Position numbers and translations under genes: made by a program
Shown here: positions 6,808 to 56,656 of the stretch, piece by piece
How the letters are laid out: each line of letters opens with the position of its first letter
Position numbering within the stretch: position 1 is the stretch's first letter
Assembly (NCBI GenBank): GCA_947628155.1
Contig: CANQYQ010000001.1
Span: 1-59,954 of the forward strand
Source: an uncultured Clostridia bacterium
GTDB lineage: Bacteria; Bacillota; Clostridia; UBA1381
Direction: 5' to 3'
DNA: 59,954 nt
The notes under the pieces: generated by a model
Told to the model about the DNA's origin: nothing
The model's database searches: none
What the model saw: the letters and a program-made list of their open reading frames with translations, nothing else

Positions 6808-8088
6808 ATGGAAATACGTGAAAAGCTTAAAATACTTACGGACGCGGCAAAATACGACGCGTCGTGCTGTTCGTCCGGCTCGGCCCGAAAAAACATACCC
6901 GGCGGGATCGGCGACGCTGCGGCGTGCGGTATATGCCATACGTTTACCGCAGACGGGCGATGCGTATCCCTGCTTAAAATTCTGCTTACGAATTACTGTG
7001 TATATGACTGTCAGTACTGTGTGAACCGGTCTTCAAACGATGTGAAGCGCGCCGCGTTTACGCCGCGCGAGGCCGCGGAGCTGACGATTGAGTTTTACCG
7101 CAGAAACTATATTGAGGGCCTGTTTTTAAGCAGCGCGGTAGTGAAAAATCCCGATTATACAATGGAGCTGTTGATCAACGCGCTGTCGATTCTCCGTAAC
7201 GAATACCGCTTTAACGGATATATTCATGCCAAATCAATTCCCGGCGCGTCGGACGAGCTGGTGACGCGGCTGGGACTTTTGGCCGACCGAATGAGCGTCA
7301 ATATTGAGCTCCCGTCGGAAAAATCGCTTAATGAGTTCGCGCCGCAGAAAACGAAAAAGAATATACTGACCCCAATGCGGCAGATCAAGAATACCATTAC
7401 GCAGTCAAAGAAGGAGCTTGCCGTGTATGAGCACGCGCCGGTGTTTGCTCCGGCCGGTCAGAGTACGCAGATGATAATCGGCGCGACTCCGGAAACGGAT
7501 ATGAATATACTGCTGCTGACGGAGGGACTGTATAAAAATTACAGCTTGAAGCGTGTATTTTATTCATCGTATATCCCGATAGGTACAAATAAGCGGCTGC
7601 CCGCCGCCGCGCCGCCGCTGCTGAGAGAGCACAGGCTTTATCAGGCGGACTGGCTGCTAAGGTATTACGGTTTTGAGGCGAGAGAGCTTTTAGACGAGGC
7701 GCGCCCGAATTTTTCAAATATAATCGACCCGAAATGCGAATGGGCGCTCAGGCATCTTGAGCAATTCCCGATCGAGATAAACAGCGCGCCGTACGAAATG
7801 ATTTTGCGCGTGCCGGGAATAGGTGTGCGCTCGGCGAAAAAAATCGTACGCGCACGCCGCGTATCGCGGCTGAGCTTTGAGGATTTAAAGCGGATGCGCA
7901 TTTCGATGAAGCGCGCGAAATATTTTGTGACCTGCTCCGGCAGAACATACGGGAATATGTGGCTGCGCCAGGAAATCATAACGCCGATGACGCTCGCCGA
8001 TGCGGGCGCGGAGGGTTTCGGACAGCTGAGCTTGTTTGACGAGCCGACGAAAGGGGATGTGGTAAAATGCCTTACCGGAGAGATATAA
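6808..8088 (+). CDS. putative DNA modification/repair radical SAM protein (TIGR03916-like) with a C-terminal helix-hairpin-helix
   Basis: CVYDCQYC is a CxxxCxxC radical-SAM cluster motif. N-terminus ...LTDAAKYDASC. The C-terminal PGIGVRSAKKIVRARR is HhH-like. It is paired with a DUF4130-type gene, as expected for this family. Confidence 0.85.
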   Translation: MEIREKLKILTDAAKYDASCCSSGSARKNIPGGIGDAAACGICHTFTADGRCVSLLKILLTNYCVYDCQYCVNRSSNDVKRAAFTPREAAELTIEFYRRNYIEGLFLSSAVVKNPDYTMELLINALSILRNEYRFNGYIHAKSIPGASDELVTRLGLLADRMSVNIELPSEKSLNEFAPQKTKKNILTPMRQIKNTITQSKKELAVYEHAPVFAPAGQSTQMIIGATPETDMNILLLTEGLYKNYSLKRVFYSSYIPIGTNKRLPAAAPPLLREHRLYQADWLLRYYGFEARELLDEARPNFSNIIDPKCEWALRHLEQFPIEINSAPYEMILRVPGIGVRSAKKIVRARRVSRLSFEDLKRMRISMKRAKYFVTCSGRTYGNMWLRQEIITPMTLADAGAEGFGQLSLFDEPTKGDVVKCLTGEI

Positions 8089-19640: not shown

Positions 19641-20076
19641 GCTCTGCTAAGGCCCCCTTGTCAAAGAGGACTGGCGCGCGTAGCGCGACTGGGGGATTCC
19701 GCAATTACAGCAAATCGCTGCAATATGCGATATTCTGTAAAAATGAATCCCTCCACCCTTTCGATTTGCAAGCAAATCGAGTGGGTCCCCCTCCCTTTGA
19801 CAAGGGAGGCTAACGCCCGCCATATGCGATTTTGTGTGTGGAATCGCATTTCGTAGGGGCGGTCATCGGCCGCCCGTATTCCGTAACGTCGTATGGTATG
19901 CGGCGGGCGGCGAATCGCCGCCCCTAAGAAAGGCCCCCTTGTCAAAGAGGACTGGCGCGCGTAGCGCGACTGGGGGATTCCGCAATTACACCAAATCGTC
20001 GTAATATGCAGTATTCTGTAAAAATGAATCCCTCCACCGCCTTCGGCGGTCCCCCTCCCTTTAACAAGGGAGGCTA
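19641..20076. repeat. mosaic hairpin-rich intergenic repeat cluster (two MITE-like units plus linker hairpins)
   Basis: Two near-identical units, 19649-19812 and 19930-20076. Each is bounded by inverted CCCCTTGTCAAAGAGG / CCTCCCTTTRACAAGGG arms around a conserved core, GGGGATTCCGCAATTACA..AATATGC..TATTCTGTAAAAATGAATCCCTCC. GC-rich hairpins lie between them. The same family occurs at 37476-37930. Confidence 0.8.
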
Positions 20077-28142: not shown

Positions 28143-29179
28143 AGCTCCATATACCTCTCCATCGGCAGCTCGCTGAATTTGTGCGCGCCGTTATATACCG
28201 CGAGCGCCCCGTCCAAAAGCGGCAGCAGCATCACACCGCCCGTACCCTCGCCGTAGCGCATATCCGCGCATATCACCGGTTTTAGTCCAATATATTCGAG
28301 GATTTTTCCGCCCGCCGACTCGCCCGATACATGAGACGCGAGCATGTAATGCTTCACCGGCGGATTTATTTTAACGGCGGCCGCCGCCGATACCGCTGAA
28401 ATAAACCCGTCGATAATAACCGGAATTTTATAAACCGCGCCGCCGAGGAACAACCCCGTCATACCCGCGATATCGAGTCCACCTATCTTCGCGGTAAGCT
28501 CCGCAGCTCTGTCCGCGTCGGGTGCGTTCACCGCTATCGCCCGCCTTATCACGTCGATTTTCCGTGCCAATCCCGCGTCGTCAAGGCCCGCACCGCGTCC
28601 GGTGACGCGTTCGGGCGGCAAATCAAGCAAAACGGACGCCATCGCCGACGCGGTCGTCGTATTGCCTATGCCCATTTCTCCCGCGATAATAATTTTCACA
28701 CCGCTAATCATTAAATCCCGGACAATATCCATACCCGCCGCAATCGCGCTCTCCGCCTCCGCTACGCTCATTGCCGGACCTCTTGTGATATTCGCCGTGC
28801 CATACCTCGTCTTTTTCCGCACCGTACCCGGCACATCCGTTATCATGCCGATATCTGCCGCCGTTACGCCCGCGCCGTATACATTCGCCAGCCGATTTAT
28901 TCCCGATACGCCGTCCGCGATCGACCTCGCGACAATTGCCGTCACCGCGCTGGTCGTCTGCGTTACGTTTTCCTCCGTCACGCCGTTGTCCGCGCACATT
29001 ATTACAGCTTCGCGGCGGTCGAGCCGGATGTTCTCGTCTCCGGTAATTCCGGAAATTTTTATGATCGCGTCCTCCAGCAGCCCAAGCCCGCGGATCGGCT
29101 TGGCCACATTGTTCCACCGCTTCCTCGCGCGGGTCATTGCCGCCGCGTCGGGCGGGGTAATTAATTTTATTCTTTCCAT
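28139..29179 (-). CDS. cobT: nicotinate-nucleotide--dimethylbenzimidazole phosphoribosyltransferase
   Basis: Start set at ATG 29179 (MERIKLITPPD; RBS GGGGAG). Motifs: ...KPIRGLGLLEDA..., GEMGIGNTTTASA, and C-terminal YGEGTGG, all typical of CobT. Confidence 0.92.
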   Translation of the reverse strand: MERIKLITPPDAAAMTRARKRWNNVAKPIRGLGLLEDAIIKISGITGDENIRLDRREAVIMCADNGVTEENVTQTTSAVTAIVARSIADGVSGINRLANVYGAGVTAADIGMITDVPGTVRKKTRYGTANITRGPAMSVAEAESAIAAGMDIVRDLMISGVKIIIAGEMGIGNTTTASAMASVLLDLPPERVTGRGAGLDDAGLARKIDVIRRAIAVNAPDADRAAELTAKIGGLDIAGMTGLFLGGAVYKIPVIIDGFISAVSAAAAVKINPPVKHYMLASHVSGESAGGKILEYIGLKPVICADMRYGEGTGGVMLLPLLDGALAVYNGAHKFSELPMERYMEL

Positions 29180-30621
29180 CTTGCGTACTCCCCGCATGTG
29201 TTTACAAAATTTACCGCCGTATCCGTATTTGCCCAAAAATGAAGATGGGGAAATCCCGCATACAGTGTCTTTGACGCGTGCGCGCATACATAATCGCCGC
29301 CGCGCGCTCTTTGCGCCGTAAACGCGCTGCCGCAGTCATAAGCGTTCCAGTAGTGGAACTCGCGCGAACGGATTTTTTCACCCCTTTTGCACAGAAGATT
29401 ATCCTCCCTCGCCGTCAGGGTAACGTACCCGAACCGCTGTAATTTATCAGTTTTGTACGCGTCGGTATCTATAACCCCGGCCATATCATACCGCCTTTTA
29501 TCCGCGCCCTCGAGCGTTTTACAAAGATACATAAATCCGCCGCACTCCGCTATCGTCGGCAGTCCGCCGTTAATTTTCGCTCTTATACCGTAAAGCATCG
29601 CCGTATTATCCGATAGAGCCGCCGCGTGAAGCTCCGGATATCCGCCGCCTATTATAAGTCCGCTTATGCCGTCCGGCAGTTTCTTGTCCGCAAGCGGTGA
29701 AAATTTTATAATTTCACATCCCAAAGAACGCAGCAAATCAAAATTATCCTCGTAGTAAAAGCAGAATGCTTTGTCATACGCGACAGCTATTTTAATCGGC
29801 CCGCGCGGCGGCATTGTACCGGGGACACTAAAATCGTCACACGCGCCTTTCGCGGAGCCGCTGAAATTGCCCGTCATCACGGGGACACTAAAATCGACGC
29901 CCGTTTTTGCATCGGGGACACTAAAACTCTCCGCCATGGGGACACTAAACCGCGCGCTTCCGGATTCGTTTGCGCAGCGGATCATATCGTCTATCCTAAG
30001 CGTTTTATCCGCCGTGCGGGCAAGAATATCAAGCTTTAATTGCAGGTTCTTGATTTCGTCCGCCGCGACAAGTCCGAGGCGGCGGCTTTCTATTGAATAT
30101 TCGGCGTTGTACGGCAAGTATCCGAAATATTGTGTGCCAAGCTCATCGCACATTTGCGCTGCCGCCGCTTCAAGGCTTTCGGGCAGCCGGTTAAAAATAA
30201 ATCCGGCGATGATGTTCGGCGTTTTGTACGTTAAAAACCCCTTCATCACCGCGCCTAATGATTCGCTCATACCCTTGCAGTCGATAACGATCACCGCCCG
30301 CGTTCCGGTACCGGCCGCCAGAGCGTGCGCCGAGGCCGTTCCGTTAACGCCGTCGTAGAAGCCCATGACCCCCTCGATCACGGAGATTTCGCCGGCGTTT
30401 TTTTGAAGCAGATAATTTACGGTGTTCTTATCGCACAGCCACGTATCAAGATTTCGCGATTTCGCGCCGATAACGCGGCTGTGGAACATCGGGTCGATAT
30501 AGTCCGGCCCGCATTTAAAGGCGGTAACGTCCATGCCGCGGTTTTTAAGCGCCTGTAAAACGGCGCATGTTACAGTCGTTTTGCCGCAGCCGCTGTGTGT
30601 GCCGGCGATCATAATTCTCAT
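29167..30621 (-). CDS. cbiA: cobyrinate a,c-diamide synthase, with an unusual FSVP-repeat insert in the interdomain linker
   Basis: Start set at ATG 30621 (MRIMIAGTHSGCGKTTVTCAVLQAL; ATGA overlap with the cbiET stop). The C-terminal GATase domain has AECGGFMYL. The insert is encoded by 29821-29949. Confidence 0.92.
   Translation of the reverse strand: MRIMIAGTHSGCGKTTVTCAVLQALKNRGMDVTAFKCGPDYIDPMFHSRVIGAKSRNLDTWLCDKNTVNYLLQKNAGEISVIEGVMGFYDGVNGTASAHALAAGTGTRAVIVIDCKGMSESLGAVMKGFLTYKTPNIIAGFIFNRLPESLEAAAAQMCDELGTQYFGYLPYNAEYSIESRRLGLVAADEIKNLQLKLDILARTADKTLRIDDMIRCANESGSARFSVPMAESFSVPDAKTGVDFSVPVMTGNFSGSAKGACDDFSVPGTMPPRGPIKIAVAYDKAFCFYYEDNFDLLRSLGCEIIKFSPLADKKLPDGISGLIIGGGYPELHAAALSDNTAMLYGIRAKINGGLPTIAECGGFMYLCKTLEGADKRRYDMAGVIDTDAYKTDKLQRFGYVTLTAREDNLLCKRGEKIRSREFHYWNAYDCGSAFTAQRARGGDYVCAHASKTLYAGFPHLHFWANTDTAVNFVNTCGEYARWKE
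29821..29949 (+). repeat. four same-strand copies of GGGGACACTAAA(A) inside cbiA
   Basis: Copies start at 29821, 29881, 29914 and 29938, with spacings of 60, 33 and 24 nt. On the coding (minus) strand each reads TTT AGT GTC CCC, which is F-S-V-P. Confidence 0.9.
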
Positions 30622-37395: not shown

Positions 37396-37475
37396 ATGCT
37401 CCTCCATTAGATTTATGTTTATATGGTCGCGCCGGTTCGGCGATTTGTTAACAATGCTGCGAAAAAAGTTCCGGT

Positions 37476-37930
37476 AACGCCCGCCGTATACGAAATCAAT
37501 CACTTGCGCCCCTTGTTAAAGGGGGAGGCTAACGCCCGCCGTATGCGATTTTCGCTCACGGGAACGCTCTGCTTGCGCCCCTTGTTAAAGGGGAGGCTAA
37601 CGACCGCCATGTGCAATTTCGCTCACGGGGACGCTCTGCTTGCGCCCCTTGTTAAAGGGGAGAGGGCCAACGAAGTTGGCGAGGGGATTCCGCAATCACA
37701 CCAAATCGCTGCAATATGCGATATTTTGCAAAAATGAATCCCTCCGTCATTTGCTCCCTGCGGTCGCAAATGCCACCTCCCTTTGACAAGGGAGGCTAAC
37801 ACTCGCCGTATGCGAAATCACTCACGGGGACGCTCTGCTTACGCCCCTTGTTAAAGGGGAGGCTAACGCCCGCCGTATTCCATATCGTGTTACGGAACAC
37901 GGGCGGCCGATGGCCGCCCCTACGGTGTTT
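37476..37930. repeat. mosaic intergenic repeat cluster inside the cob supra-operon (same family as 19641-20076)
   Basis: Four copies of a 60-70-bp unit, TTGCGCCCCTTGTTAAAGGGGAGGCTAACGCCCGCCGTATGCGA...CTCACGGGGACGCTCTGC, start at 37504, 37573, 37640 and 37849. One MITE-like unit (about 37640-37798) carries the GGGGATTCCGCAAT...GAATCCCTCC core. The terminal hairpin GGGCGGCCGATGGCCGCCC is the reverse complement of 19856-19876. Confidence 0.8.
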
Positions 37931-42321: not shown

Positions 42322-42520
42322 TTTCGTACCGAACAAAGGGCAGGTCTCCCGGCTCATACATCAGGCGTTTCAAAAGAGCCTTCCCGGTTTTACCCAGTGG
42401 CGTAATTCTCCGAAACTACGTAATCACGGTGACGAGTTCGCGCGGGATTTTCACCCGCTTCCCTTTTCACCTGAACCAACTCCGGAAACTCCGGAATCTC
42501 AGGCACCCTTCGTCATTATT
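42322..42520 (-). promoter_or_regulatory. cobalamin (B12) riboswitch
   Basis: The minus strand reads ...GGTTCAGGTGAAAAGGGAAGCGGGTGAAAATCCCGCGC...GCCACTGGGTAAAACCGGGAAGGC...GAGCCGGGAGACCTGCC. These are the conserved GGUGAAAAGGGAA / GUGAAAAUCC core and a B12 box (AGCCGGGAGACCTGCC). Confidence 0.88.
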
Positions 42521-42533
42521 TAATTGTGAATGT

Positions 42534-47532: not shown

Positions 47533-48906
47533 CTATTCCTCCTCATCATCGGAGCTGCCGGCCGGTTCTGTGACAGACGTACCGTCGACCGATGTGCGGG
47601 TCGTACTGCCCGTGCGCTGTTCGTTAATAATCGAACCGTTGCCCGTAAGACCCGATGAACTATCAGATTCATCAGATTCGTCGGAATCCGATGAGCCTGA
47701 CGAACTCGATGAGCCTGACGAACCCGATGAGCTCGATGAGCCTGACGAACTCGATGAGCCTGACGAACCCGACGAGCTTGACGAACCCGATGAGCTTGAC
47801 GAATCTGACGAGCTGTCGTCATCATATGATGAATCAATATATGCCGATGAGCTGTAGTCCTCGCCGCTGCCATCAGAATCCTCGCTGTCGGTATAATCGG
47901 AGTATGTACCATCGCCCGTCATGGACGGGTCGGAGGATGGTGTGGGTTCAAGATACGGCATTTCATCAAGGCGCTTGAACACATAGCCCTCGGATATCAG
48001 GTATTCGATAATTGAGCTCAATCCCTCCGCTGTCGCTGTTTTGGCCGCGGCGTCATGCATAAGCACGACCGTGCTTGAATCGGTATCGAGATTGCTCTGG
48101 AGATATTCCAAAAGCTCCTGTGAGTTTTTCTTTCGGCCCTCCGCGTCGCCGTTCAGTGAGTTCCAGTCAATATAATAGAAGCCGTTGGCGGCAAGCGTGT
48201 TTTTGTATACCTGCTTCTCGGACGCGTGATCGCCCGCGTTGTAGCTGCCGCCCGGGAAACGAAACAGCTTCATATGGTGGTCGCCGTTTGTGATATTTGA
48301 TATTATCTCCTCTGTTTCCTGGACCTCGCTCATAAACGATTCCTCGGTCGCATATAATGTCTCATAGTTATGACCGTTGGAGTGATTTGCTATAAGATGT
48401 CCCTCCTCATATACTCGGCGCGCGAGATCGGGATAAGAATTAATGGACGTTCCGAGCATGAAAAACGTCGCCTTAATATTGTATCGGCGCAGTGTATCAA
48501 GGATAATCGGAGTGGTGTTCTCCGCCGGACCGTCGTCAAATGTCAGGTACGCGGTTTTTTCCGCGCCTTGTTCGTCCAGATCCATGATTATATCAAGAAG
48601 GTCATTTTCCTCTTCCGCCGGAGGCAGAAGCGTCGCCGCGCTCGGAACGGGAGTAGGAGCGAGAGGATCGATCGTCGGCTGAGCCGTAACTTCCGCCGTA
48701 TCCGTATCCGCGTTTACCGCTTCGCTGCCGTTTTTATTGCGGCACGAAACAAACGCCAGTATAATAAGCGCTATTACCGCTATAAAAATCACAAACAGCA
48801 ATAACGCGCGTATTCTTTTCTTACGCCGTCTCTCGCGGCGTCTGCGCTCCGCTCTGCGCGCTTCAAGACTTCTTGGTTTGTTTTGATTTGTCTGATTAGC
48901 AGCCAC
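47533..48906 (-). CDS. membrane-anchored polysaccharide deacetylase (CE4) with a Ser/Asp-rich C-terminal tail
   Basis: Basic N-terminus and one TM (ALLLFVIFIAVIALIILAFV). NodB domain (YLTFDDGP..., HSNGHNY, LMHD). The tail is SSSDSSSSSGSSSSSGSSGSSSSSG.... The start is ambiguous. GTG 48906 has a GGGGGA RBS, whereas the ORF-track TTG at 48930 has none. Confidence 0.82.
   Translation of the reverse strand: MAANQTNQNKPRSLEARRAERRRRERRRKKRIRALLLFVIFIAVIALIILAFVSCRNKNGSEAVNADTDTAEVTAQPTIDPLAPTPVPSAATLLPPAEEENDLLDIIMDLDEQGAEKTAYLTFDDGPAENTTPIILDTLRRYNIKATFFMLGTSINSYPDLARRVYEEGHLIANHSNGHNYETLYATEESFMSEVQETEEIISNITNGDHHMKLFRFPGGSYNAGDHASEKQVYKNTLAANGFYYIDWNSLNGDAEGRKKNSQELLEYLQSNLDTDSSTVVLMHDAAAKTATAEGLSSIIEYLISEGYVFKRLDEMPYLEPTPSSDPSMTGDGTYSDYTDSEDSDGSGEDYSSSAYIDSSYDDDSSSDSSSSSGSSSSSGSSGSSSSSGSSSSSGSSGSSSSSGSSDSDESDESDSSSGLTGNGSIINEQRTGSTTRTSVDGTSVTEPAGSSDDEEE
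47660..47815. repeat. imperfect 18-bp tandem repeats encoding the poly-Ser/Gly/Asp tail
   Basis: The plus strand reads GATGAGCCTGACGAACTC / GATGAGCCTGACGAACCC / GATGAGCTC / GATGAGCCTGACGAACTC / GATGAGCCTGACGAACCC / GACGAGCTTGACGAACCC / GATGAGCTTGACGAATCT.... Confidence 0.8.
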
Positions 48907-49051
48907 TGTAATTCCCCCATTTTTCAACAAATATCGTGTACATATTTTATTATATACTACTTTTTCAAAAAATTCAACATTAATTTATACATATTTGAAA
49001 ATATATTCCGCATATATATGAAATATAACAAAAAAACGGGAGGTTATAAAA

Positions 49052-54530: not shown

Positions 54531-56198
54531 ATGTTATCCGATATAGAAATCGCGCAGGCGGCGAAAATGAATCATATACGCGACGTCGCGGCGTCCTTGG
54601 GTATAGATGAGGACGAGCTTGAATATTACGGCAAGTACAAGGCAAAGCTTGGCGTTGACGTATGGAAGAAATTTGGCAGTAATAAAGACGGCAAGCTTGT
54701 GCTCGTTACGGCGATCAATCCCACCCCCGCGGGCGAGGGCAAGACCACGACAACTATAGGCTTGGGCGACGCCCTGTCGCGCATGGGTAAAAAATGCGTG
54801 CTCGCGCTGCGCGAGCCGTCTCTCGGCCCGGTCATGGGTGTTAAAGGCGGCGCGGCCGGCGGCGGTTACAGCCAGGTCGTGCCTATGGACGATATAAACC
54901 TGCATTTTACGGGCGATATGCACGCGATAACAGCGGCAAATAATTTGCTGTCGGCAATGATCGACAATCATATCCATCAGGGCAACGAGCTCGATATTGA
55001 CGTTACGAATATAGTATGGAAGCGCGTGGTCGACACTAATGACCGCGCTTTGAGGAAAATAGTAGTCGGCATGGGCGGACATATAAACGGTGTACCACGC
55101 GAGGACGGGTTTATGATCACGGTCGCGTCGGAGGTTATGGCGATATTGTGCCTCGCGAGCGATATGGACGATTTGAAGCGCCGGTTCGGCGAGATTATAA
55201 TCGGTTATAACCGTGCCGGTCAGCCGGTCAAGGCGTCGGATCTGCACGCCGAGGGCGCTATGGCCGCGCTTATGAAGGACGCGATTCACCCGAATCTTGT
55301 TCAAACGCTTGAGCATACGCCGTGCCTTATCCACGGCGGGCCGTTCGCGAATATCGCGCATGGCTGCAACAGCGTCCAGGCGACGACCCTCGCGATGAAG
55401 ATGGCCGACTACACGATCACCGAGGCGGGTTTCGGCGCCGATTTGGGCGCGGAGAAGTTTATGGATATAAAGTGCCGCATGGCCGGAATTAAGCCAGACG
55501 CGGTGGTCATTGTCGCGACGGTGCGCGCGCTTAAATATAACGGCGGCGTGAAAAAGACCGATTTAAAAGCGCCGAATCTTGACGCGCTTAAAAAGGGAAT
55601 TGTAAATCTTGAAAAGCATATTGAAAATATGAAGAGGTTTGGCGCGCCCGTGGTCGTCGCGGTCAATCGTTTCGATACGGACAGCGATGAGGAGCTGAGA
55701 TATATAATCGACCGCTGCGCTGAACTCGGCGCGGACTGCGCCCTTTCGGAGGTGTTCGCAAAGGGCGGCGAAGGCGGATTGGAGCTTGCCCAAAAGGTAC
55801 TCGCGGCAATGGAAACGCCGTCGGAATATCATCCGGTTTACGATGTCAACGACAGCATAACCGATAAAATCAACGCGATTGTAACAAAAATTTACGGCGG
55901 CGCGGGAGTTGAGTATTCGGCTAAGGCGAAAAAGGCAATAAAGAAGCTTGAAGAGCTCGGCCTTGACAAAAAACCCGTCTGCATAGCGAAAACGCAATAC
56001 TCCCTTTCCGATGACCAAACACTTTTGGGCCGCCCCGAGGAATTCACGGTCAATGTGAGCGAAATACGCGTATCGAACGGCGCGGGATTTATCGTGGCGG
56101 AAACGGGAAATATTATGGTAATGCCCGGGCTTCCGAAGGTTCCGGCCGCGAACAATATAGATATTGACAGCGACGGCGTAATTTCCGGCTTGTTCTGA
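54531..56198 (+). CDS. fhs: formate--tetrahydrofolate ligase
   Basis: Start set at ATG 54531 (RBS AAGGAGG lies inside the longer TTG-initiated ORF). [11 protein letters not shown]......[17 protein letters not shown]... is canonical FTHFS. 555 aa. Confidence 0.96.
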
Positions 56199-56200
56199 TA

Positions 56201-56293
56201 GGGGACACTAAATCCATGGGGACACTAAATTATATCTCAAACGATCCCGAAGACACAAAAAAAATCGCGTCGGATTTTTCGGGGACACTAAAA
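56201..56293 (+). repeat. three same-strand copies of GGGGACACTAAA at the fhs/tsaE junction and in the 5' end of tsaE
   Basis: Copies at 56201-56212 (intergenic, 2 nt after the fhs TGA), 56218-56229 (tsaE codons 2-5, read G-T-L-N) and 56281-56293 (read G-T-L-K). The 12-mer is identical to the one in cbiA. Confidence 0.9.
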
Positions 56294-56656
56294 CCCGGAA
56301 GCGTGGTATGCCTTTACGGCGGTCTTGGCGCGGGAAAAACCGCGTTTGTGCAGGGCCTCGCTAAGGGCCTGGGCGTGACGGAATATATTACCAGTCCGAC
56401 GTTTACAATTGTGAACGTGTATGAAAGCGGACGCGTGCCGCTGTATCATTTTGATATGTATCGGCTTGCCGACTGTGACGAGGCGTATGAGATAGGGTAC
56501 GAGGAATACGTTTACGGCGGCGGAATAAGCGTTATGGAATGGCCGGAAAACGTTGCGGATATTTTGCCGGAGAGCCGTTATGATATAACGATCTCAAAGG
56601 ATGATGGCCGCGGCACGGATTTTAGGAAAATAGACATTATAAAGGTAGGAAAATGA
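56216..56656 (+). CDS. tsaE: tRNA t6A37 biosynthesis ATPase TsaE
   Basis: LYGGLGAGKTAFVQGLAKGLG..SPTFT.VN.Y......YHFDMYRL are TsaE/YjeE hallmarks. 146 aa. Confidence 0.9.
   Translation: MGTLNYISNDPEDTKKIASDFSGTLKPGSVVCLYGGLGAGKTAFVQGLAKGLGVTEYITSPTFTIVNVYESGRVPLYHFDMYRLADCDEAYEIGYEEYVYGGGISVMEWPENVADILPESRYDITISKDDGRGTDFRKIDIIKVGK

Follow-up and report, generated by a model that had tools for sequence, protein, structure and literature searches.

Why a single word of twelve nucleotides (nt) should stand four times, letter-perfect and in frame, inside the gene of a cobalamin enzyme is the question raised by the cbiA locus of an uncultured bacterium of the clostridial lineage UBA1381. The stretch analysed, hereafter the window, comprises 59,954 nt of contig CANQYQ010000001.1, and the word, GGGGACACTAAA, occurs in it exactly seven times, always on the plus strand, in one cluster within cbiA and a second at the junction of fhs and tsaE (coordinates in Table 1); six of the seven copies lie within open reading frames (ORFs). 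The four cbiA copies follow one another at 60, 33 and 24 nt and read Phe-Ser-Val-Pro (FSVP) on the minus strand, as an earlier, preliminary description of this DNA had reported, and the number of copies is, as that description also held, far above chance. In 100 dinucleotide-preserving shuffles of the window the mean count was 0.01 and none of the 100 gave seven; a k-mer census ranked GGGGACACTAAA first among the repeated 12-mers of the window, and allowing two mismatches added a single match, which is the level expected by chance. We hold with high confidence that the seven copies are part of a 12-nt element that is hyper-abundant throughout a whole group of gut Clostridia. Locally they apparently amount to a harmless linker expansion and an intercistronic array, and globally to the tip of a clade-wide, hyper-conserved 12-mer system. 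More tentatively, with a probability of about 35%, we propose that GGGGACACTAAA is the recognition word of a new genome-wide, sequence-specific system of Gram-positive gut anaerobes, which may be either the first DNA uptake sequence (DUS) system outside the Proteobacteria or a new strand-polar array system acting on DNA or transcripts, with the inverted pair as the standard terminator of the clade.

The spread of the word was assessed by scanning one genome per species for two copies 3-33 nt apart, for which about 0.1 match is expected by chance. The scan gave at least 114 stretches and at least 18 carrier species, all gut Clostridia with G+C contents of 43-54%, so that the word is not confined to the window. 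Carriers include ten rabbit metagenome-assembled genomes (MAGs), a goat MAG, Hominilimicola and Candidatus Ornithomonoglobus, and their sources are rabbit, goat, chicken and human. Matches in Tepidisphaeraceae (L095), Doudnabacteria (L107) and Magnetococcales (L111), being longer, unrelated tandem repeats that contain the 12-mer by chance, were removed. Around other CbiA homologues the word is found in just one of 80 loci (483 kb), so that the element belongs to a particular clade of Clostridia. The best match among close CbiA relatives in metagenomes is just 53% identical, the motif is missing from 79 of these 80 loci, and an exact-protein look-up of CbiA gave no match. Viral contigs hold neither pairs nor hairpins, only single 14-mer matches once per contig with no clustering, and the 12-mer is not phage-borne. 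A literature search for the 12-mer sequence returned unrelated primer matches only, and a system of this kind in Clostridia is apparently undescribed.

The word is as sharp as it is abundant. The matches listed amount to 861 kb of loci with 416 exact copies, and clusters recur about once per 10 kb when those beyond the collecting cluster of each block are counted. Over-representation exceeds 1000-fold, with very few one-mismatch variants: the 114 listed stretches and the window together hold at least 423 exact, 109 one-mismatch and 49 two-mismatch copies, the last of these at about the chance level, and 62 of the 109 one-mismatch copies are a single variant with A at position 1, AGGGACACTAAA. 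The extended unit can be written [C/T]-R-GGGACACTAAA-R, with an invariant core of 11-12 nt. Outside the 12-mer there are weak preferences alone (A at -2, C/T at -1, A/G at +1, T/C at +2), and the CCAT prefix that had been noticed as common to several copies is not significant.

The force that keeps the word exact acts on nucleic acid and not on protein, since the copies are independent of reading frame, are spelled with rare codons and also occur in non-coding DNA; this agrees with the preliminary description, which had treated the 12-mer as a specific entity of the DNA and not as a peptide repeat. About half of all copies are inside ORFs, where all four stop-free frames are used (GDTK 128, GTL[KN] 73, FSVP 18 and LVSP 9 times) and where 66 of 89 spacings of 21-40 nt are multiples of three. 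Composition predicts 4.6 occurrences of GDTK in about 248,000 codons; there are 122, of which 115 are spelled GGGGACACTAAA, even though GGG, ACT and CTA are seldom-used codons (5.9, 4.2 and 1.6 per thousand). In 213 comparisons of a copy with the orthologous site of another species, the word is exact there in 200, where the average divergence of the genes would lead one to expect 61, a difference of which part is inflated by ascertainment; for the copies in CobM, which were not the basis of locus collection, the figure is 18 of 18 against 9.8 expected. An earlier synonymous-site test was discarded as circular, having been conditioned on exact motifs in all species. The window further argues for a force at the level of DNA, because its four antisense cbiA copies are perfect and its seven copies keep to one strand across genes of opposed direction.

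The host of the first cluster is a regular member of its family. CbiA has a nucleotide-binding P-loop domain (PF01656, residues 3-176) and a GATase_3 domain (PF07685, residues 277-465), which is the CbiA/CobB layout of an N-terminal CbiA domain followed by a C-terminal GATase_3 domain, and its homologues among the matches listed reach E-values down to 1e-208. At 484 residues it exceeds the other 119 proteins among the best 120 matches listed, which span 440-478 residues and of which the nearest is 67% identical and 443 residues long. Alignment with 13 homologues places about 38 additional columns exactly at the linker between the P-loop and GATase_3 domains, and homologues are without the insert, so that an in-frame, lineage-specific insertion within the interdomain linker is borne out. 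The preliminary description was right that the protein is longer than its relatives, whereas its estimate of 25-30 additional residues was too low; length comparison and alignment give about 36-41. In the AlphaFold2 model (mean predicted local distance difference test score, pLDDT, 84.6; predicted template modelling score 0.84) both domains are folded with confidence, and residues 219-275 form coil, with pLDDT falling below 50 at residues 236-272. Since the segment is modelled as a disordered tether joining two folded domains, the insert probably just lengthens this tether, and the enzyme is probably unaffected.

The internal structure of the insert indicates how it may have grown. The preliminary description regarded the sequences between the copies as unrelated and concluded that a longer unit had not slipped. 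This is wrong, as a two-copy block and its diverged duplicate (blocks A and B, Table 1) can be recognised, with an alignment score that, the leading motif left out, is matched by just 0.1-0.5% of shuffles; Tandem Repeats Finder missed the duplication, the blocks being too diverged. The spacers of the two blocks differ by about 40%, and the four copies are still perfect. With regard to the cbiA insert alone, the units are head to tail and of common descent, as in a coding tandem repeat; the insert is an old duplication of the two-copy block, plausibly produced by slippage between direct repeats of 12-13 nt. The block-B counterpart of the second copy has decayed; its coding-strand form is TTCAGCGGCTCC, synonymous changes are among its losses, and it shows that single copies can escape whatever holds the others exact. 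At the site of the first FSVP the 67%-identical homologue reads SAKPIS-FTAP, with FTAP encoded by TTT ACC GCG CCG, and this native F-x-x-P is conserved across most homologues in the alignment. The CbiA linker of two rabbit MAGs carries the word in its sense form, GDTK, directly before the native TNFTPP.

The insert is also found outside this assembly. The second member of the 90% cluster of CbiA (P0121) comes from an independent European Nucleotide Archive (ENA) assembly, ERZ27249032, whose contig L195 matches the window letter for letter throughout the insert, so that neither the four copies nor the spacers between them differ. The last 400 or so cbiA codons of L195 are identical to those of the window, insert included, and the first 85 or so are strongly diverged, which points to L195 being from another strain or a mosaic; over an alignment of 1864 nt, L195 1-1923 has 8 gaps and 55 mismatches relative to window 28741-30595. 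The break in identity suggests a recombination breakpoint between strains inside cbiA.

Comparison at the fhs-tsaE junction reveals a second way in which copies can appear. The closest available relative there is the rabbit MAG Lapin-008_bin65 (locus L061), with 95% amino-acid identity in Fhs and 71% in TsaE. The two junction copies of the window are orthologous in L061 and in a further locus, L006, which has three copies, and the spacers between them have diverged. The last copy adjoins the ATG in both L061 and L006; the window is 5 nt shorter, its start has shifted to an ATG just upstream, and owing to this shift the copy at 56218 now lies within the tsaE coding sequence and encodes MGTLN. 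The copy at 56281 aligns with CACAAACGCTGA in L061, from which it differs at 7 of 12 positions with no change in length, so that copies can arise in place without insertion. Such same-length overwrites, of which the first FSVP on the native F-x-x-P is another, contradict for several copies the idea of a short insertional oligonucleotide that the preliminary description had listed first among its explanations. Copies originate in place by substitution, and clusters grow through local duplication.

In the relatives the word takes forms that the window lacks, and neither these nor its clade-wide abundance could have been recognised from the window by itself. The canonical hairpin is a 26-nt inverted pair consisting of an A-rich flank, GGGGACACTAAA, two arbitrary nucleotides, TTTAGTGTCCCC and a T-rich flank. 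Inverted pairs are convergent at a single fixed offset in 39 cases and divergent in 8, and the hairpin pairs stand mostly between convergent genes. With a free energy near -30 kcal/mol (z -4.5 to -5), the inverted pair is predicted to be a stable, bidirectional hairpin resembling an intrinsic terminator, and the one example tested, in L012, was recognised by a terminator-pattern scan. Hairpins are usually accompanied by 1-3 additional direct copies on one side, at 14-18 nt spacing and always beside the arm of the same orientation, a placement that would leave a U-tract for both directions of transcription. The clusters of the window are without an inverted partner or a hairpin-type copy, and their folding is not above that of shuffled sequence (z = +1.7). 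Hairpin-free direct arrays occupy intercistronic spacers and 5' leaders. In seven or eight loci the last copy runs directly into the start codon, giving GGGGACACTAAA(A)ATG with GGGGA at Shine-Dalgarno distance; start codons may be mis-annotated in such arrays (L003, L006, L017, L061, L064, L073, L082 and L029). A search of the arrays against Rfam gave no family at gathering thresholds, and relaxed thresholds gave spurious matches to microRNA, CsrB and MicA far below the cut-offs.

Preferred sites of the word are ones that tolerate change, namely interdomain linkers, N-termini, intercistronic spacers and 3' ends. Intragenic hosts are ordinary housekeeping genes and include the MutL linker, an interdomain segment of UxaA, an M20 peptidase, HypD/E, a U32 peptidase, xylulokinase and most cob genes. 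The disordered linker of MutL carries 4-5 sense GDTK copies in several species (L008, L027, L041, L068, L080 and L079), together with near-copies reading RDTK and EDTK, and gains and losses between species occur there by point substitution.

Among known systems the closest are the DUS and uptake signal sequences (USS), whose published hallmarks are inverted pairs within terminators, coding copies that use whichever frame is open and fall on poorly conserved positions, and enrichment in genome-maintenance genes (PMC2817400; PMC2346458; bioRxiv 10.1101/2025.10.24.684340). Like these, the 12-mer is a short, non-palindromic word (9-12 nt) in excess by orders of magnitude (7 against 0.01 in the window) and is common to related species and genera, with at least 18 carriers here and 79 of 80 other CbiA loci without it. 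More than 90% of inverted DNA uptake enhancing sequences (DUES) are within predicted terminators (bioRxiv 10.1101/2025.10.24.684340), and the 12-mer likewise has inverted pairs as intrinsic terminators, in the relatives only. Coding DUS and USS copies are frame-independent and at poorly conserved sites (PMC2817400), as are the copies in any open frame in the linkers of CbiA, MutL and UxaA and at the N-terminus of TsaE. Copies by in-place substitution, the 4-5 copies in the linker of MutL as a genome-maintenance gene and the absence from phage DNA complete the likeness.

Together with the excess over chance, these parallels lead to the mechanism that we favour. An excess above 1000-fold with few one-mismatch variants is a product of drive or copy mechanisms, as in DUS, USS and the repetitive extragenic palindromes (REP), and for this reason we favour a molecular drive of the uptake or conversion type as what maintains the word, an explanation to which we would give somewhat less than even odds. 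A sequence-specific process at the level of DNA would convert sites to, or retain them as, the exact word, most likely through a bias in uptake or in conversion, with homologous recombination as the next step, as for uptake sequences; gene conversion, which the preliminary description had listed, is viable. In cbiA the native F-x-x-P of the linker would have drifted or been driven to TTTAGTGTCCCC, a second copy would have arisen beside it, and the resulting two-copy block of 57 nt would have been duplicated through slippage between the 12-13-nt direct repeats, after which the spacers would have diverged by some 40% while four copies were kept perfect and one decayed. The hairpin form may have been co-opted as a terminator, and strand polarity, like the geometry of the arrays, would be secondary, the polarity perhaps reflecting coding tolerance, terminator and U-tract geometry and a Shine-Dalgarno-like use.

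Several observations weigh against this proposal. Sequence-specific uptake has been described only for Neisseriaceae and Pasteurellaceae, and a literature search found no report from Firmicutes or Clostridia; the 12-mer occurs in Gram-positive anaerobes, for which uptake specificity is not known. Its density is some ten-fold below that of DUS, published as roughly 1 per kb. The word is clumped, with tandem arrays of 2-5 copies at 2-6-nt spacers, whereas DUS and USS are dispersed. It is also polar: ORFs of at least 200 aa hold 177 sense copies against 10 antisense, and credible hosts of antisense copies are confined to two cob genes in L045 and the cbiA of the window. Amino-acid composition alone predicts a sense to antisense ratio of about 3.4:1, and in intergenic arrays flanked by co-directional genes, where coding plays no part, the polarity is 18:1, whereas uptake sequences show "no general orientation bias" and an intragenic bias of about 2:1 (PMC2346458). 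In addition, the loci were collected for motif pairs, which inflates cluster sizes and some of the conservation figures. We therefore do not file the 12-mer as a DUS, because the orientation and spacing features of that class are missing and an uptake function is putative. The polarity could track transcription or replication, and loci of 8 kb are too short to part the strand of the gene from that of replication or of the block majority.

If transcription is what counts, GGGGACACUAAA in the mRNA or non-template strand would be bound by a trans-acting RNA-binding protein or small RNA, with arrays giving avidity and the inverted copy a terminator or 3'-end hairpin, and with roles in termination, mRNA stability, processing or translation initiation. 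Such a transcript-level cis element would explain why orientation is co-directional with transcription in coding and non-coding DNA alike, and it fits the arrays in 5' leaders, intercistronic spacers and 3' untranslated regions, the last copies that adjoin start codons, and the variable 14-18 nt spacing, which suits a flexible single strand; the clumping is what cooperative binding predicts. However, the four cbiA copies of the window are antisense to the mRNA and yet perfect between diverged spacers, sites that proteins recognise on RNA are seldom conserved to the letter over 11-12 nt in so many places and genera, no compensatory change is seen where one arm of a hairpin is degenerate, and no Rfam family matches. 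We regard the transcript-level explanation as unlikely, if a serious contender; a protein- or RNA-binding site tolerated in coding DNA, as put forward in the preliminary description, is to that extent viable.

A motif that is polar with respect to replication, similar to Chi of AddAB, a RecBCD-type helicase-nuclease, or to the FtsK-orienting polar sequences (KOPS) and SpoIIIE recognition sequences (SRS) that guide these two DNA translocases, would be maintained on the leading strand and would pass for a sense motif only because most genes run in the direction of replication. All seven copies of the window are on the plus strand with cbiA on the minus and tsaE on the plus strand, as such a motif would have it, and the cob operon is a minus-strand block between plus-strand genes. 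If some 15% of genes are assumed to be on the lagging strand, the roughly 3.4-fold lower tolerance of antisense peptides that composition implies leads to about 5% antisense copies, and about 5% are observed; the lack of motif clusters in viral contigs would suit a self-marker. GC skew at four-fold degenerate sites in the window is slightly higher in plus-strand genes (0.177 against 0.138), a difference that is not significant. Against these points, at 11-12 nt the word is longer than every Chi (5-8 nt) and every KOPS or SRS (8 nt) so far known, the more than 1000-fold excess with almost no one-mismatch variants is unlike weakly selected polar motifs, and those systems feature neither tandem arrays nor a multitude of inverted pairs. 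Furthermore, within 9 kb the word switches direction together with the strand of the genes (L022 versus L020), and both orientations occur within one operon in L045. A replication-polar role accordingly strikes us as distinctly unlikely.

A tiny mobile or insertional element that spreads by copy and paste, whether a REP-like repeat or REPIN (a REP doublet forming a hairpin) moved by a REP-associated tyrosine transposase (RAYT) or a very small repeat resembling a miniature inverted-repeat transposable element, is improbable. The 26-nt inverted pair does resemble REP, REPIN and the bacterial interspersed mosaic elements in size, in its location at gene 3' ends and between convergent genes, and in clustering (PMC3116915; PMC3733652); extrapolated from about one cluster per 10 kb, its copy number may also reach hundreds per genome, and the CbiA cluster is linked to net inserted DNA. 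The REP unit, however, is an imperfect palindrome of 20-40 nt and the 12-mer, a half-site, has no self-complementarity, only the inverted pair of the relatives being palindromic; REP is extragenic and the 12-mer is half intragenic and in frame. Copy-and-paste insertion is disfavoured because several copies in coding DNA are same-length substitutions. Array spacers are unrelated in length and sequence, the consensus has no GTAG or CGTC tag, viral contigs are without clusters, and a tblastn search of 0.9 Mb with an IS200 TnpA query found no RAYT or other Y1 transposase, a weak test.

Two further explanations can be set aside briefly. Selection for an FSVP or GDTK peptide in the linker, to which the in-frame spacing and the first FSVP on the conserved F-x-x-P of homologues might point, is scarcely credible given one DNA word encoding four peptides besides its non-coding copies, invariant synonymous positions with rare codons, and a segment that is predicted to be disordered and that homologues lack. 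An artefact of assembly or sequencing, or chance, which the oddity of the pattern alone would suggest and which the preliminary description had listed in the form of an assembly artefact, is rejected with near certainty by the identical four-copy insert in an independent ENA assembly apparently of another strain, by the shuffles, by the presence of the TsaE protein on three contigs from three sources and by orthologous copies in other species from other sequencing projects.

Other known repeats resemble the 12-mer in part. HIP1 (GCGATCGC) of cyanobacteria is hyper-abundant, clade-wide and conserved at nucleotide level in coding DNA, with no established function (PMC5861425), and is an 8-bp palindrome linked to methyltransferase sites; the word described here is an asymmetric 12-nt sequence with polarity, arrays and a hairpin. 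Chi and KOPS/SRS are words of 5-8 nt and the invariant core here is 11-12 nt. In clustered regularly interspaced short palindromic repeats (CRISPR) the repeats are 23-50 nt with uniform spacers, whereas here they are 12-13 nt, with spacers of 2-48 nt, inside housekeeping ORFs. Rickettsia palindromic elements and other in-frame intragenic repeats are tolerated in housekeeping proteins at surface and linker positions; the Rickettsia elements are palindromic insertions of 100-150 bp, whereas the unit here is 12 nt and often lies over existing codons.

Hyper-abundant, exactly conserved oligonucleotides are rare, and the few cases that are understood mark a powerful process acting across the genome, be it sequence-specific DNA uptake, transposition by a domesticated transposase, or the guidance of recombination and segregation. 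Should the word be a true uptake mark, this would imply that uncultured gut anaerobes undergo natural transformation and recognise their own DNA, and it would bear on gene flow in the microbiome; should the system act at the level of RNA or replication, it would constitute a cis code of a new type. In practice the word is a taxon-specific sequence tag, a source of in-frame length variation in protein linkers (CbiA, MutL, UxaA) and a cause of start-codon mis-annotation.

Table 1. Positions in the window of the 12-mer copies, their host genes and the duplicated blocks of the cbiA insert.
Feature	Position	Strand	Description	Support
cbiA	29167..30621	-	cobyrinate a,c-diamide synthase, 484 aa; host gene	
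Interdomain linker	29797..29967	-	disordered; CbiA residues 219-275	alignment, AlphaFold2 model
12-mer copy 4	29821..29832	+	FSVP, residues 264-267	
Block B	29833..29892	-	60 nt, FSVPVMTGNFSGSAKGACDD; diverged duplicate of block A	shuffle p = 0.001-0.005
Decayed fifth copy	29854..29865	+	GGAGCCGCTGAA; FSGS in coding strand; 7/12 motif positions; block-B counterpart of copy 2	
12-mer copy 3	29881..29892	+	FSVP, residues 244-247; opens duplicated block B	
Block A	29893..29949	-	57 nt, FSVPMAESFSVPDAKTGVD; putative source unit of the duplication	
12-mer copy 2	29914..29925	+	FSVP, residues 233-236	
12-mer copy 1	29938..29949	+	FSVP, residues 225-228; antisense to cbiA; on native F-x-x-P	
12-mer copy, fhs-tsaE	56201..56212	+	intercistronic spacer, 2 nt past the fhs stop codon; orthologous in L061 and L006	
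tsaE	56216..56656	+	host gene of second cluster; fhs ends at 56198	
12-mer copy, tsaE start	56218..56229	+	over the start codon (MGTLN); orthologous to the copy in the 5' untranslated region abutting the ATG in L061 and L006	
12-mer copy, within tsaE	56281..56292	+	GTLK; same-length overwrite of native codons	

Other repeats and RNA elements were seen in the window and among the motif-rich loci. A second, unrelated family of intergenic repeats occupies window positions 19649-20076 and 37455-37883, with units of 67-109 nt that consist of palindromes (CCCCTTGTTAAAGGGG, CCCTTTGACAAGGG) followed by GGAGGCTAACGCCCGCCGTATGCGA-like tails; two copies lie near 19.6-20.1 kb and 4-5 tandem copies near 37.5-37.9 kb, inside the cob region. 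A tandem repeat at 47689-47814 with nested periods of 18, 27, 36 and 45 nt (CGATGAGCCTGACGAAC...) is apparently coding, within the minus-strand ORF region 47536-48984. A cobalamin riboswitch (42322-42525, minus strand, 103.5 bits) precedes the cob operon, which lies on the minus strand and includes cbiA. The motif-rich locus L048, from rabbit MAG Lapin-001_bin71, carries an OLE (ornate, large, extremophilic) RNA at 681-1346 on the minus strand (417 bits) and a tetrahydrofolate (THF) riboswitch at 7373-7485 on the plus strand.

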